Shown here: positions 3,614-7,930 of the stretch, piece after piece
Layout: each line of letters opens with the position of its first letter
Position numbering within the stretch: position 1 is the first letter of the stretch
Assembly: GCA_900299315.1 (NCBI GenBank)
Contig: OMJI01000280.1
Coordinates: forward strand, 1 to 33,431
Direction: 5' to 3'
Origin: Verrucomicrobiota bacterium
Lineage (GTDB): Bacteria > Verrucomicrobiota > Verrucomicrobiia > Palsa-1439
Length of the DNA: 33,431 nucleotides
Notes under the pieces: generated by a model
Database searches by the model: none
What the model saw: the letters and a program-made list of their open reading frames with translations, nothing else
Told to the model about the DNA's origin: nothing
Program-made: the position numbers and the translations under genes

Positions 3614-3697
3614 CGGGTCGCAGTGAACCGGTAGAGTCGCTCCTTACGACCCAGCTTCTGGATTGGCGAAACGACGCACTCTGTGTACAACCGACGC

Positions 3698-5020
3698 ATG
3701 GTGACCGGGAATCGCAGAACGCGTTGGCGCAGCCGGCTCTTCGCGCCCATCGACGGTGCGTCGCTGGCGGTGTTCCGGATGTGTTTTGGCGGCATCATGC
3801 TCTACGAGATGCTGGCGTTTCTGTTTTCGGGTGACGTCTATTGGCACTTCGTGGCGCCCCAGTTTCACTTCTACTATCCCGGCTTCAGTTGGGTGAAGCC
3901 GTGGCCGGGGTGGGGGATGACGGTGCATTTCTGGGTCTTGGCGGTGCTGGCGGCGCTGGTGATGGTGGGGCTGTGGTACCGGGTCAGCATCGCGTTGTTT
4001 TGCATTGGCTGGACGTACGTCTTCTTGCTCGAAGCGACGGAATACCTCAACCACTTCTACCTGATTTGTCTGATCAGTTTCCTGCTGATCTTCATACCGG
4101 CGCATCAGGTCTGGTCGGTGGACGCGTGGCGGCGGAAACGGGATCCATTCGTGCCGGTGTGGAGTTTGTGGTTGCTGCGGGCGCAACTGGGCATCGTGTA
4201 CTTCTACGCCGGTGTCGCGAAGATCAATCCGGACTGGTTTCGCGGCGAGCCTCTGCGCTCGTGGATGACGGAGTTGACCCACCGGCCGATCTTGGGCGCG
4301 CTTCTTCATGAAGAATGGATGGTGATGCTCTTTGTTTACGGCGGATTGATGCTGGATTTGTTCATCACGCCGCTGCTGTTGTGGCGGCGGACGCGACCGG
4401 TCGCCTTTGTGGCGGTAAGTGTGTTCCACCTCACGAACGCGACCGTCTTCGGCATCGGCATCTTCCCCTGGATGATGCTGACCACGACGTTTTTGTTTCT
4501 CGAACCCGGTTGGCCGCGGCGACTGGTCGCCCGCCCTGCAGCGGCCGCCGTCCCGGCGGCGTTTCCCTATCGGCCCCGGACAGTTCAACTGCTGGCGATC
4601 TATCTGGCGCTCCAAATCCTCCTCCCGCTCCGGCATTTCCTTTATCCCGGTGAGGTGAGTTGGACAGAAGAGGGCCACAAGTTTTCGTGGCACATGAAAC
4701 TTCGCCAGAAAGAAGCGACGGCGAAGTTCTGGGCCACCGACCGACTGACGGGGCGGACGTGGCTGGTCGCGCCTGAGGATTACATCACCCTCCGGCAGTA
4801 CGTCCGCATGTCCACGCGACCAGAACTGATTCTCCAGTTCGCTCACCACATCGCTGAGGATGAGGCGCGGCACGGTCGCGGCGAAGTCGCCGTGCGCGCG
4901 GAAGTCGTCGCTTCGCTCAACTCGCATCCGCCGCAGGCGCTGATCGATTCGAATGTGAACCTCGTCGCGCAAACCGATTCGTGGCGACCGGCGGCGTGGA
5001 TCGTGCCCTTGAAGGAGTGA
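3698..5020 (+). CDS. HTTM-domain / vitamin K-dependent gamma-carboxylase-like membrane protein
   Basis: DGASLAVFRMCFG, YLNHFYL, VYFYAGVAKINPDW, FHLTN, IGIFPW, WTEEGHKFSWHMKLR; several hydrophobic segments. Start uncertain (3683 GTG or 3698 ATG). Confidence 0.85.
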   Translation: MVTGNRRTRWRSRLFAPIDGASLAVFRMCFGGIMLYEMLAFLFSGDVYWHFVAPQFHFYYPGFSWVKPWPGWGMTVHFWVLAVLAALVMVGLWYRVSIALFCIGWTYVFLLEATEYLNHFYLICLISFLLIFIPAHQVWSVDAWRRKRDPFVPVWSLWLLRAQLGIVYFYAGVAKINPDWFRGEPLRSWMTELTHRPILGALLHEEWMVMLFVYGGLMLDLFITPLLLWRRTRPVAFVAVSVFHLTNATVFGIGIFPWMMLTTTFLFLEPGWPRRLVARPAAAAVPAAFPYRPRTVQLLAIYLALQILLPLRHFLYPGEVSWTEEGHKFSWHMKLRQKEATAKFWATDRLTGRTWLVAPEDYITLRQYVRMSTRPELILQFAHHIAEDEARHGRGEVAVRAEVVASLNSHPPQALIDSNVNLVAQTDSWRPAAWIVPLKE

Positions 5021-5022
5021 CC

Positions 5023-6060
5023 ATGCGCGGTCGTGGCGCTGCCGAGAATCCGCCCAACCGGTTCGAGTTGCTCAGCGTCGAACGCGATCCGGCCAGTGAC
5101 CAACCGGAAGCTGTCGGGCTGCACACGCAGTTCTACCGGGATAACTCCCGGTCAATCATCACCTACAACGACAGCCCGGACATTCCTTTCAACGCCAGCC
5201 TCAATCCATACCGGGGCTGTGAGCACGGTTGCGCTTATTGCTATGCCCGGCCGTATCACGAATACCTCGGCCTCTCTCCCGGGCTCGATTTCGAAACCAA
5301 AATCATCGTGAAAGAAAACGCGCCGGAATTGTTGCGGCGTGAATTGTCATCCCCGCACTGGAAGCCTCAGACGCTGTCGCTGAGCGGAGTCACCGATCCG
5401 TACCAGCCGGTCGAGCGCACACTTCAGCTGACGCGGCGCTGTCTCGAAGTGCTCGCGGAATTCCGCAACCCGGTCGGCATCGTGACCAAGAACCAACTCG
5501 TCACACGTGATCTCGATTTGCTGGCTGAGCTGGCGAAGTACCGGGCCGCAGTTGTTTACCTCAGCATCACCACGCTTGATGCCGAACTGGCCAGACTCAT
5601 AGAACCGCGAACCACCCAGCCAGCCGCCCGGCTCCGCGCGATCAGCGAGTTGGCGCACGGGGGTGTGCTGGTTGGGGTCCTCGTTGCACCTGTCATTCCC
5701 GGCCTGACCGACCATGAACTGCCGGCGATCTTGAAAGCGGCGGCGGACGCCGGCGCACGATTTGCCGGTATGGTGCCGCTGCGGTTGCCTCACGCGGTGA
5801 AGGACATTTTCACCGCATGGCTGGAACGAAACTTCCCCGATCGCCGCGAGAAAGTACTCGGCCAGATCCGGTCGCTGCGCGGCGGTAAACTGAACGAGGC
5901 CGCCTTCGGCAAGCGCATGACTGGTGAGGGGATTGTCGCGGAACAACTCGCCCAACTCTTCACCGTCGCGAACCGACGGGCCGGTCTGGCGGATTCGAGT
6001 CCGGAGCTTTCCGCTGCTTCATTCCGGCGACCCGGTGGCCGGCAGTTGGAGATGTTTTGA
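5023..6060 (+). CDS. PA0069/Rv2578c-family radical SAM protein (spore photoproduct lyase-like)
   Basis: RGRGA N-terminus, NPYRGCEHGCAYCYAR (CxxxCxxC), TDPYQP, C-terminal QLEMF. AAGGAG RBS lies at the end of the upstream gene. Confidence 0.9.
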   Translation: MRGRGAAENPPNRFELLSVERDPASDQPEAVGLHTQFYRDNSRSIITYNDSPDIPFNASLNPYRGCEHGCAYCYARPYHEYLGLSPGLDFETKIIVKENAPELLRRELSSPHWKPQTLSLSGVTDPYQPVERTLQLTRRCLEVLAEFRNPVGIVTKNQLVTRDLDLLAELAKYRAAVVYLSITTLDAELARLIEPRTTQPAARLRAISELAHGGVLVGVLVAPVIPGLTDHELPAILKAAADAGARFAGMVPLRLPHAVKDIFTAWLERNFPDRREKVLGQIRSLRGGKLNEAAFGKRMTGEGIVAEQLAQLFTVANRRAGLADSSPELSAASFRRPGGRQLEMF

Positions 6061-6063
6061 GGT

Positions 6064-6135
6064 CTACTGGCAGTAGCACTGACAGCCCGTGAGAAGCACC
6101 GGGATCAGGAGCAACAGGAAGGGGAAGAGTGACAT
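6064..6135 (-). CDS. Putative 23-aa micro-lipoprotein MSLFPFLLLLIPVLLTGCQCYCQ
   Basis: Manual translation of the intergenic gap: hydrophobic stretch, LTGC lipobox, TAG stop. Candidate promoter TTGCCA-17-TATCAA ends 8 nt before the ATG. Confidence 0.5.
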   Translation of the reverse strand: MSLFPFLLLLIPVLLTGCQCYCQ

Positions 6136-6176
6136 GGTGCCGGTTGATAGCAGGCACCGGCAGGCTTGGCAAGCGG

Positions 6177-6809
6177 TCACCGGCGGACGAAGGTTAAGAC
6201 GTCGGAGACGACGAACTGGAATTTTCGCTCATGCTCCCGGATGAGAAACGGCAGGTCGCGTCGGCGCTTGAGGACGAAGGCCGGGGCCAGAAGCTTGGGA
6301 AGTTCCCCGGGCTGAATCCAATACCGGCGGGCCGTGTATTGCGTGAGCCAGGAGTAGGGCGTGGCCAAGACAAGTTGACCGCCGGAAAGCACTAACTCCG
6401 GCAGGTGGGCGAGGAACTGCCGGGGGTTCGGTAGCCGGCAAATCAGGTTTACGGCGAGCACCACGTGATATTGGCCGGTAACGGTCATTGCGTCGCCGAC
6501 GCGGAACTTGATGTGCCGGGACTTGGTGTGTTGCCGAGCGGCGCGGATGAATTGCCGGGAGTTGTCGATGCCGGTGGCTTCATCGACGACTTTGGCGAGT
6601 TCGTGTGTCAGTCCGCCGACAGCGCAGCCCAAGTCGAGTCCGCGTGTTGGACTGGAAAAGTGGAGCGGCAGGAGACATTCCCGGACGATCCGGCGGTGGA
6701 AGTGGAACGCCGCCTTTGGCGCGAACGGGTACGGACAAAGCTCGCGAGGTGAGCCGTAATGGAAGAGCAAATATTCCGCGAGGTACCGGCGCGTTTCGTA
6801 GGGGTTCAC
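6177..6809 (-). CDS. Class I SAM-dependent methyltransferase resembling the OvoA C-terminal (mercaptohistidine N-methyltransferase) domain
   Basis: NPYET..LAEYLLFHYG N-terminus, LDLGCAVG motif I, NLICRL, TPYSW, FLIREHERKFQ. GTG start overlaps the upstream stop. Confidence 0.8.
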   Translation of the reverse strand: MNPYETRRYLAEYLLFHYGSPRELCPYPFAPKAAFHFHRRIVRECLLPLHFSSPTRGLDLGCAVGGLTHELAKVVDEATGIDNSRQFIRAARQHTKSRHIKFRVGDAMTVTGQYHVVLAVNLICRLPNPRQFLAHLPELVLSGGQLVLATPYSWLTQYTARRYWIQPGELPKLLAPAFVLKRRRDLPFLIREHERKFQFVVSDVLTFVRR

Positions 6810-7930
6810 AACGCAACGCTCTTCACGAAGTCGGTGGGATTGTAATGTTCGATGAGCAGTTTCTCAGTGCCACCCTTGTGGAGCCAGACGCCTGTGACGT
6901 CGATCTCCGGGGTTTTGTGGGGCGCGAATAGAATGTCCTCGTGAGTCGCGTTGCGTTTGTTGAGGAACTTGGCCGGGCCGAGCGAGCCACCAAGATGGTC
7001 GCTGCGGCCAGTGGCGACGTGGAACGTGCCGAGAATCTTCTCGTCCTGAATATCCGCGCCTGCGACCGGCAGGTCTTGAGTTCCCAATCCGAGTTCGCCC
7101 AATTCGCCGGTGGCGGGATCGCTGCGGAATCGTTCGAGTGCCGCATTCACCGTGGCTTGCTCGCCGCGGAGGAGGGTGACGTCCTTGACCCGGCAATCCG
7201 CAACATGCATGACGCCAAGCGTCCCGTCCTTGAACCGGTGGGGAAACTGGCCATGCGCACCGGTCGGCACCCAGTAGATTTCTCCCGCCGGCAGATTTGC
7301 GATTTCGCCGGGCGTGCGACAGAGTCCGTGGCTCTTCTGCGCTTCCTGACGGCCAAGCTCCAGCGTCAGCCGGTAGCGCTGGCCGAGCGTGTCGAACTCG
7401 ACCACCACGTCGTCAGCCCGCGTGAGTGCCTGCCGGAAGCGTTCGGCTTTTTGGGAGACATCGTTGTAATTCTTGGAGAGACCGGTTTCGAGGATGATGC
7501 GGTTGCAGCCGTGCATGGTGGCGCCGCGGAAACCGAGTTGCTTGGCAATGGCCGTGATGGGAGCGGTCGCCGAGTAGGTGCTGAGATAGAGAACAATGTC
7601 GAGGTTCGGCAGGATCTCGTTCACAAGATCCAGACTTTGGCCACGGAGATTGTAAGCCACCGGCGGGAGGTCCAAGTTGCTGCCGCCGGTGGGTTCGTAA
7701 GCGTAGAAGCTGACCGCGCTGAGACCAAGTGCAGTTCGTTCATCCAGCAACCGCCGGTAGAACACCTCGTAGGCGATGCGCCGCGACGTCCACGGGCGGT
7801 CGTTGAGGAAATTCAAGGTGGCGATATCTTGTGGCCTATCGAGATCGATAAACACTCCCACGCGTTCGCCCGGGCGGGGCGCGAAGACGGTGGTCATGAG
7901 TTGGGACAGATCAAAGTTCAATTCGTGCAT
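6806..7930 (-). CDS. M29-like (thermophilic metalloprotease / aminopeptidase T) family protein
   Basis: NLPAGEIY, GELGLG, QDEKILGTFHVATG and THEDILF metal-ligand pattern; GAGGAG RBS. Confidence 0.75.
   Translation of the reverse strand: MHELNFDLSQLMTTVFAPRPGERVGVFIDLDRPQDIATLNFLNDRPWTSRRIAYEVFYRRLLDERTALGLSAVSFYAYEPTGGSNLDLPPVAYNLRGQSLDLVNEILPNLDIVLYLSTYSATAPITAIAKQLGFRGATMHGCNRIILETGLSKNYNDVSQKAERFRQALTRADDVVVEFDTLGQRYRLTLELGRQEAQKSHGLCRTPGEIANLPAGEIYWVPTGAHGQFPHRFKDGTLGVMHVADCRVKDVTLLRGEQATVNAALERFRSDPATGELGELGLGTQDLPVAGADIQDEKILGTFHVATGRSDHLGGSLGPAKFLNKRNATHEDILFAPHKTPEIDVTGVWLHKGGTEKLLIEHYNPTDFVKSVAL

Follow-up and report, generated by a model that had tools for sequence, protein, structure and literature searches.

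A short open reading frame conserved in four Verrucomicrobiota genomes as a candidate gene for a lipid-anchored hexapeptide

The DNA analysed here, called the window below, is a stretch of 33,431 nucleotides (nt) that makes up positions 1 to 33,431 of contig OMJI01000280.1 (GenBank assembly GCA_900299315.1) from a Verrucomicrobiota bacterium (GTDB lineage Verrucomicrobiia; Palsa-1439). On its minus strand lies an open reading frame (ORF) of 23 codons, hereafter the micro-ORF, whose predicted product has a hydrophobic core, a lipobox, and a final six residues that read CQCYCQ. This ORF fills most of a 116-nt intergenic gap (6061-6176) on which a radical SAM gene and a gene for a class I methyltransferase converge, and it is carried on the same strand as the methyltransferase gene. 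The ATG of the micro-ORF is 41 nt past the methyltransferase stop, and its stop is 3 nt from that of the radical SAM gene. A previous interpretation of this DNA, made from its letters with a list of ORFs and termed here the sequence-only reading, had placed a 23-codon minus-strand ORF in the gap between these two genes, and its coordinates, frame, and stop all read as claimed (Table 1).

We compared the assembly under study (G000) with the other two genomes of its genus, g1 (G001 and G002), and with the sole genome of genus g13 (G014). All four come from uncultured bacteria. An exact look-up in a collection of 15 billion proteins covered seven sequences, namely the micro-ORFs of G000, G001, and G002, longer readings for G000, G001, and G014, and a zinc-ribbon protein described below. 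None of the seven was present.

Table 1. Features of the micro-ORF locus in the window, and copies of the micro-ORF in three related genomes
Feature	Position	Strand	Remarks
Micro-ORF (G000)	6064..6135	-	ATG 6135-6133; 23 codons (MSLFPFLLLLIPVLLTGCQCYCQ) to 6067; stop TAG 6066-6064
Predicted signal peptide, residues 1-17	6085..6135	-	Lipobox L-T-G before Cys18; agrees with the canonical regular expression
Predicted mature hexapeptide CQCYCQ	6067..6084	-	Cys18 is the predicted lipidation site; two further Cys
-35-like hexamer TTGCCA	6167..6172	-	In block GCTTGCC[A/T]A, (near-)identical upstream of the G001 and G002 oxidoreductase genes
Extended -10-like element TGcTATCAA	6144..6152	-	TG (6152-6151) one base before hexamer TATCAA (6149-6144); 8 nt before ATG, leaderless geometry
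7-bp inverted repeat TGCCGGT/ACCGGCA	6138..6162	-	Arms 6162-6156 and 6144-6138; brackets the -10 region
PA0069-family radical SAM gene	4981-6060	+	Pfam Radical_SAM E 1.4e-15; NCBIfam NF033668 E 1.2e-140
Class I methyltransferase gene	6809-6177	-	Several Pfam families, E about 1e-11
Micro-ORF in G001	L032:1644-1721		25 codons MTPRLIRLLVTLLPLILTACRCYCQ
Micro-ORF in G002	L031:5736-5813	-	25 codons MNHYLIQLLLLLWPLLIAGCQTCCQ
Micro-ORF in G014	L082, end at 1536		C-terminus ...LLATGCQCFCP-stop; found by profile search

Conservation of the micro-ORF

The micro-ORF is present in all three genomes of genus g1 and in the one genome of genus g13. All four copies have the start region in common, and their hydrophobic core contains a Pro (Thr in G014). 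Positions -1 and -2 hold small residues, the Cys that follows is invariant, and the tail is six residues long, has exactly two Cys beyond this first one, and ends in a stop at the same position. This stop is encoded by different codons (TAG, TAA, TAG, and TGA), and the codons for Cys, Gln, Pro, Leu, Thr, and Gly likewise vary synonymously among the copies. The tail reads CRCYCQ, CQTCCQ, and CQCFCP in the relatives, with Cys invariant at positions 1 and 5, and it is more conserved across the four copies than the signal part. When the G000 peptide alone served as query, the micro-ORF was the sole match in G001 (E 0.0018), in G002 (E 0.156), and in G014 (E 0.167).

An alignment of relatives had been proposed by the sequence-only reading as a check on its claim, and this alignment keeps the frame, the start, the lipobox (canonical in three of four copies), the three-Cys tail, and the stop position. 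That reading had also named a case that would speak against it, in which the ORF is the stump of a longer lipoprotein gene. This case did not arise because all of the homologs are equally short.

By the Nei-Gojobori method, the proportion of synonymous sites that differ (pS) is 0.52-0.78, which is near saturation, versus 0.28-0.41 for nonsynonymous sites (pN), and the ratio of nonsynonymous to synonymous substitution rates (dN/dS) is 0.15-0.56 where computable. Furthermore, a substitution-only neutral simulation was started from the G000 ORF, with 20,000 runs for each divergence, and we scored the survival of a feature set made up of the start, the open frame, the stop in place, the lipobox, and at least three Cys. 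The full set survived at frequencies of 0.00215, 0.00015, and 0 at 30%, 45%, and 59% divergence, respectively. Judged from these sequence comparisons, the micro-ORF is probably a real protein-coding gene that is restricted to a small lineage.

Several observations weigh against this conclusion. The dN/dS values derive from only about 20 codons at which synonymous sites are saturated, and the sample consists of four sequences from two genera, all in draft assemblies that are 76-91% complete. In addition, we scanned the G000 assembly for micro-ORFs that have a start codon, a hydrophobic core, and a lipobox and end no more than 12 residues past the Cys. There were six matches, compared with 12 in a control that had been reversed without complementing. 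The pattern in G000 alone is thus no excess over chance, and one genome is insufficient for the claim. We consider the gene to be real because it is conserved across relatives, and not on the strength of G000 alone. Within G000, the micro-ORF is the best looking of the six matches (ATG start, Leu-rich core, and intergenic position). A six-frame scan run with looser criteria (a lipobox, three or more Cys, and a stop within 13 residues) returned 70 matches, among which the micro-ORF alone has a Met and a hydrophobic core. No paralogs of the micro-ORF were found in G000.

The distribution of the family is narrow. A pattern for the tail at the DNA level (C-[QRH]-x-[YC]-C-Q-stop) matched in 12 of the 45 genomes of the bacterial family, with four matches in a backward control, and real ORFs were found only in the three g1 genomes. 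A profile built from the three g1 peptides gave E values of 2e-14 to 9e-12 in g1 and, over the same 45 genomes, a best value elsewhere of 0.0093. We inspected 27 of the 35 non-g1 rows from this profile search, leaving out eight that had no locus and E values of at least 0.9. These 27 rows comprised one homolog (G014), an unrelated ORF in genome G016, ordinary lipoprotein signals, and matches within genes. Among 401 genomes of the class, the pattern [GA]-C-[QRH]-C-[YF]-C-x-stop matched in 19 (four control matches), and the matches are real only in G000, G001, and G014; G002 is missed by this pattern because its variant tail cannot match it. A search of 185,579 species genomes gave seven pattern stretches, and the one listed locus is an out-of-frame chance match in a 316-codon gene of an Obscuribacterales metagenome-assembled genome. 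Likewise, metagenome contigs gave 106 pattern stretches with none confirmed, and a DNA pattern gave four stretches with no real ORFs.

Gene contexts and a promoter-like box

In G000, the gene order along the micro-ORF strand is the methyltransferase gene, a promoter-like box, and the micro-ORF, followed by the converging radical SAM gene. In G001 and G002, the methyltransferase gene is followed by a gene for a zinc-ribbon membrane protein, a promoter-like box, a gene for a Gfo/Idh/MocA-type oxidoreductase, the micro-ORF, and a radical SAM gene whose QueE-like identity has an E value of 2.3e-86. In G014, the order is the zinc-ribbon gene, the micro-ORF, which starts about 60 nt after that gene, and a LysR gene. 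No neighbouring gene is common to all four contexts, and the radical SAM and methyltransferase neighbours that had been mentioned by the sequence-only reading turned out not to be a conserved setting among the genomes that carry the micro-ORF. In both G001 and G002, the micro-ORF ATG overlaps the oxidoreductase TGA as ATGA. Because such an overlap is a usual mark of coupling, it suggests translational coupling of the micro-ORF to the oxidoreductase gene in these two genomes.

The promoter-like box of G000 has a 17-nt spacer between its two hexamers and ends 8 nt before the micro-ORF ATG. Both blocks of this box, including CTGCTA[T/A]CA[A/C]C, also stand before the oxidoreductase gene of G001 and that of G002, with the same 17-nt spacing and 7-8 nt to the ATG. 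The spacer sequence varies between species while the -35 and extended -10 blocks stay, and TGCTATCAAC, a 10-mer of the -10 block, has a single occurrence in the whole G000 assembly. Because the blocks, the spacing, and the distance to the ATG are shared with the upstream region of the sister oxidoreductase gene, we take the G000 box to be orthologous to the box that precedes the oxidoreductase gene, and with it the coupled micro-ORF, in G001 and G002. The promoter geometry described by the sequence-only reading is borne out and is supported by this orthology. By its sequence, the box would act as a working promoter.

Two features of the G000 locus argue the other way: the -10-like hexamer lacks its final T, and there is no terminator between the micro-ORF and the converging gene 3 nt away. 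A sigma-70 scan of positions 5500-6900 listed one other site and no terminators; the box is absent from this listing because the scan requires a T at position 6 of the -10 hexamer.

The micro-ORF had also been said to share a leaderless geometry with other genes here, and this holds for the subset of genes with a -10-like hexamer 6-9 nt before the start. Over 3325 candidate starts of long ORFs in G000 (shadow ORFs included), TANNNT counts peak at these distances before the first start codon (56, 20, 28, and 42 versus a background near 12), and in the window the complete -35/-10/start arrangement is seen for three long ORFs. G000 likewise has an enrichment of Shine-Dalgarno-like words, 4-11 nt before starts. 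From these sequence counts, G000 seems to mix leaderless genes and genes led by a Shine-Dalgarno sequence.

The inverted repeat reported around the -10 region is present but is neither conserved nor unusually stable. It lies in the variable part of the spacer and is not kept in G001 or G002, and its fold has a z score of 0.22, with 113 of 200 shuffles folding as well. It is probably incidental.

The methyltransferase of G000 is 76% identical to its ortholog in G002 and about 71% identical to that in G001, and these two orthologs resemble one another (84% and 74% over two pieces) more than either resembles the one in G000. In the G000 assembly, with its completeness of 86%, no orthologs of the oxidoreductase, zinc-ribbon, or QueE-like genes were found. 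The oxidoreductase gene was either lost in G000 or gained in G001 and G002, and either way the micro-ORF stays behind the promoter box. Near the ends of the oxidoreductase gene in G001 (L032:640-665 and 1628-1655), a similar word is found, CAACCCG followed by a few bases, ATGA, and CCC. This possible microhomology could have been the route for a clean loss or gain of the oxidoreductase gene between the promoter box and the micro-ORF. For the QueE-like gene, the best tblastn match in G000 is 35% over 75 residues, though relatives in the family have the gene. Its apparent absence from G000 may be an assembly gap because of the incompleteness noted above.

We considered two neighbouring genes as partners of the micro-ORF and rejected both. 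The oxidoreductase gene occurs at 18 loci, two partial ones of which were dropped, and the 14 other loci of the family whose 3' end is complete all lack the micro-ORF. At 10 of these 14 loci, all from other genera, the QueE-like gene directly follows the oxidoreductase gene with no micro-ORF between. The zinc-ribbon gene is not an obligate partner, given that homologs in genomes G015 and G026 have no downstream micro-ORF and that G000 has the micro-ORF without a zinc-ribbon gene. Its product (L032:241-606 in G001 and L082:1046-1417 in G014) has about 122 residues with a C-terminal membrane helix and is a match to Pfam DUF983, above the cut-off in G014 (27.5 bits). The gene occurs in 3 of 201 class genomes; it adjoins the micro-ORF in G014 and lies 1 kb upstream of it in G001 and G002.

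Other features of these neighbourhoods are recorded here as separate observations. The top NCBIfam match of the G000 methyltransferase is the C-terminal 4-mercaptohistidine N1-methyltransferase domain of OvoA (TIGR04345; E 2.3e-33), at 115.7 bits against a cut-off of 170 that is not reached. Within 6177-7930 on the minus strand, a 374-codon ORF has a stop that overlaps the methyltransferase start; it matches no Pfam or NCBIfam family, and G001 and G002 conserve the pair. A 445-codon ORF (3683-5020, plus strand) that lies immediately upstream of the radical SAM gene carries an HTTM domain (E 1.7e-87) and a vitamin K-dependent gamma-carboxylase lumenal domain (E 1.5e-44). After the micro-ORF of G001, positions L032:1722-1790 hold two GC-rich stretches that can form hairpins and are not in G002; the promoter-like box of the QueE-like gene comes after them.

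Predicted processing as a lipoprotein

The lipobox consensus [LVI][ASTVI][GAS]C, as given in passages of bioRxiv 10.1101/2025.04.02.646747 and PMC7296081, is found in three of the four copies: LTGC in G000, LTAC in G001, and IAGC in G002. The corresponding signals have 17, 19, and 19 residues and fall inside the average range of 16-26 residues stated in a passage of PMC8689077. In all four copies, the invariant Cys is preceded by G or A at -1 and by T or A at -2. The signal ends resemble those of the ordinary longer lipoproteins of the family (P-x-LL[TA]GC; e.g., ...LLLPFLLTGC and ...LVPLLLTGC), and the top Pfam match for the G000 peptide is LPAM_1 (PF08139; E 0.0091). The processing enzymes are encoded in G000 with scores above their cut-offs (Lgt, 222.7 bits; LspA, 141.4 bits; Lnt, 323.7 bits). 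Lgt is also encoded in the other three genomes: G002 has three copies, whereas G000, G001, and G014 have a single one. A cassette of an Lgt paralog and a tetraether-synthase-like gene is thus not common to the four genomes, and no match to NF045702 was above the cut-off. Furthermore, LspA cleaves short synthetic lipobox peptides in vitro, as described in part of PMC8689077.

Other features count against such processing. The fourth copy, from G014, ends its signal in ATGC and so departs from the lipobox at -3, where it has A. Its start is uncertain, and the sole common in-frame start codon, a GTG, gives a signal of 12 residues. A positively charged n-region, with K or R among the first residues, is a PROSITE-type rule for lipoproteins. 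The n-region has no K or R in G000 and G002; that of G001 has R4 and R7. The sequence-only reading had itself cautioned that the G000 n-region has no basic residue and that the -10 hexamer lacks its last T, and both are seen. The LPAM_1 match amounts to 16.8 bits versus a cut-off of 20, and the G001 and G002 peptides have no LPAM_1 match. NCBIfam likewise gave only weak matches to the signal region (E 0.062-0.27; 11-13 bits versus cut-offs of 27.7-168).

The main rival explanation draws on these same features. In it, the micro-ORF encodes a small real protein that is neither cleaved nor lipidated, a single-pass membrane peptide of 23-25 residues with a short Cys-rich C-terminal tail that serves a larger membrane complex as subunit or regulator, as other tiny membrane proteins do. 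The coding conservation applies to such a peptide too, and the missing basic n-region in G000 and G002, the sub-threshold LPAM_1 match, and the non-canonical -3 residue in G014 speak for it. Like Prli42, a tiny unprocessed membrane protein mentioned in part of bioRxiv 10.1101/2025.04.02.646747, the predicted product is very small, has a single hydrophobic segment, and was missed by gene callers. Unlike proteins of the Prli42 type, however, the micro-ORF combines a conserved lipobox with an invariant Cys directly after it and a tail that is also conserved. All four copies retain small residues at -1 and -2, the signal ends in the same way as in bona fide longer lipoproteins of the family, and Lgt, LspA, and Lnt are all encoded. 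Moreover, the hydrophobic stretch has about 15 residues, which is few for spanning a membrane stably. We regard an unprocessed membrane peptide as the most serious of the alternatives, albeit a rather unlikely one, and from the sequence we see about an even chance that the micro-ORF is both a real gene and one whose product is processed as a lipoprotein.

For lipoprotein processing we infer a series of steps that comprises a transcription start, translation, membrane insertion, lipidation, and cleavage. In G000, transcription would most likely begin from the extended -10 promoter 8 nt upstream and would yield a leaderless or nearly leaderless mRNA. In G001 and G002, the orthologous promoter would drive the oxidoreductase gene, and the micro-ORF would be translated by coupling. 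The pre-peptide would insert into the membrane after release, with its N-terminus inside, because 23 residues are too few for co-translational targeting. Housekeeping enzymes would then act in turn, with Lgt placing diacylglycerol on Cys18, LspA cutting before Cys18, and Lnt acylating the new N-terminus. The end product would be a lipid-anchored hexapeptide, N-acyl-S-diacylglyceryl-Cys-Gln-Cys-Tyr-Cys-Gln, of about 1535 Da (1534.9 Da monoisotopic in the tripalmitoyl form) with two free thiols.

The two thiols predicted to be left after lipidation of the first Cys would have the spacing C-x-C in three of the species and C-C in the fourth. Both spacings occur in metal-thiolate and redox-active motifs; metallothioneins and copper chaperones, for example, are soluble proteins with short Cys-x-Cys or Cys-Cys thiolate motifs of like spacing. 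Because the tail is better conserved than the signal, the tail looks like the working part, and it would most likely serve as a soft-metal ligand at the membrane surface or as a redox-active dithiol. Such a metal or redox role is speculative, and we consider it unlikely to be correct as it stands. The sequence-only reading had interpreted the product as a lipidated hexapeptide with a possible thiol or metal role. The frame and the promoter box behind that interpretation are conserved; the lipidated hexapeptide and its thiol or metal role are what we still only infer.

Remaining alternatives and significance

The micro-ORF could instead encode the precursor of a further modified ribosomally made and post-translationally modified peptide (RiPP), of the DAG-RiPP type or similar, whose Cys residues are altered by enzymes encoded elsewhere. 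As described in part of PMC13056109, DAG-RiPPs are ribosomal peptides with a signal peptidase II signal that are lipidated by the lipoprotein pathway, and in some of them Cys residues are functional, including as copper ligands. The micro-ORF resembles them as a short lipobox peptide with a Cys-rich tail and a predicted diacylglyceryl, N-acyl end product, and in G000 it is flanked by radical SAM and methyltransferase genes. However, DAG-RiPPs are defined by a neighbouring modifying enzyme (MNIO with its partners), and no such gene was found nearby or elsewhere in the four genomes (MNIO, PF05114, in 0/4 genomes at 76-91% completeness). No enzyme gene is common to the four contexts, and the flanking radical SAM genes differ, being of the PA0069 family in G000 and QueE-like in G001 and G002, where the QueE-like gene belongs to a pairing with the oxidoreductase gene that most other family loci have without a micro-ORF, as counted above. 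A precursor of this kind is improbable. The product likewise differs from methanobactin-type precursors, given that PF05114 (MbnB_TglH_ChrH) has no match in the four genomes and that the leader is a hydrophobic signal. With no modifying enzyme gene near the micro-ORF, its product would therefore come from housekeeping enzymes alone.

A non-working sequence, either a chance ORF or a 5' remnant of a lipoprotein gene that has not yet decayed, is improbable to a similar degree. Such ORFs are as common in the reversed control as in G000, and one that looks like a stump does exist in G016. This 39-codon ORF (L079:1426-1542) has a lipobox and an eight-residue tail, CTSYCDFY, and is not conserved in the family. 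About 850 nt downstream lies a 652-codon ORF with a similar signal, so the short ORF seems to be a duplicated 5' stump. The micro-ORF, by contrast, is kept in four species and three contexts at saturated synonymous sites, its neutral retention would be at most 1.5e-4 per lineage, and its homologs share both their shortness and the place of their stop. G000 has moreover kept the box and the ORF, though the zinc-ribbon, oxidoreductase, and QueE-like genes of its sisters were not found there.

Very unlikely is a regulatory leader or upstream ORF, in which the act of translation would matter (for example, in sensing Cys supply or in coupling) and not the peptide. In G001 and G002, the ORF is rich in Cys codons and has the QueE-like gene just downstream. 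Set against this, no same-strand gene follows in G000, where the converging gene ends 3 nt away, and it is the amino acids that are conserved, most strongly those of the tail. In addition, a separate conserved promoter-like box stands between the micro-ORF and the QueE-like gene. This box of the QueE-like gene (TTGAC..N17..GATAC) is conserved across genera, including genera that have no micro-ORF.

Least probable of all is a conserved non-coding element (small RNA, riboswitch, terminator, or operator) in which the ORF is incidental: the intergenic position and the upstream inverted repeat of G000 would suit it, but an RNA element is contradicted by Rfam (no match at E up to 1 in 601 nt of G000 or in 9198 nt around the ORF in G001, G002, and G014), by folding (the z score of 0.22 given above), and by covariation (RNAalifold consensus of -0.12 kcal/mol with three pairs and no compensatory changes), and the third codon positions differ most (10-13 versus 4-10 at first and second positions).

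Returning to the lipid-anchored hexapeptide, its closest counterparts in kind are small lipoproteins. Two of these are described in parts of the sources consulted: Atu8019 of the entericidin family, with 53 amino acids of which 32 are mature (PMC7296081), and PflE of Campylobacter, with 57 amino acids and its lipobox Cys at position 17 (bioRxiv 10.1101/2025.04.02.646747). The micro-ORF is like them in having an N-terminal signal, a lipobox, an invariant Cys, a very short gene, and a predicted use of Lgt and LspA (and Lnt). It is unlike them in that its predicted mature part has six residues versus 32 and about 41, carries a three-Cys tail, and is known here from sequence. We found no sequence relation to named small lipoproteins, the matches to entericidin A (E 0.27) and LptM (E 0.069) being confined to the signal region.

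Word matching in the open-access literature found no lipoprotein with a mature part of a few residues and no natural gene-encoded hexapeptide of such kind, and the mined-precursor datasets of PMC13056109 could hold similar peptides. The predicted product is far shorter than the small lipoproteins found in print, and no curated family in Pfam or NCBIfam covers the micro-ORF.

In chemistry, the predicted product equals the Pam3Cys-type synthetic triacyl lipopeptides, which are laboratory compounds, with a peptide part of five residues. Taken as a whole, the proposal is of a natural, gene-encoded triacylated hexapeptide that would be made by housekeeping lipoprotein enzymes alone. Its length would be far below that of any lipoprotein described, and it would in effect be a ribosomal lipopeptide that has no biosynthetic gene cluster; its C-x-C dithiol would be a membrane-anchored metal ligand or redox group. 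In this complete form we hold the proposal tentatively, as possible but doubtful.

If it is true, a gene of 23 codons could yield, through the lipoprotein pathway and without dedicated enzymes, a lipopeptide of about 1.5 kDa, and the boundary between lipoproteins and lipopeptide natural products would be blurred. The lower size limit in vivo for substrates of the Sec/YidC-Lgt-LspA route would then be a mature part of six residues. Finally, the micro-ORF would be a concrete functional gene that falls below the length reported by gene callers.

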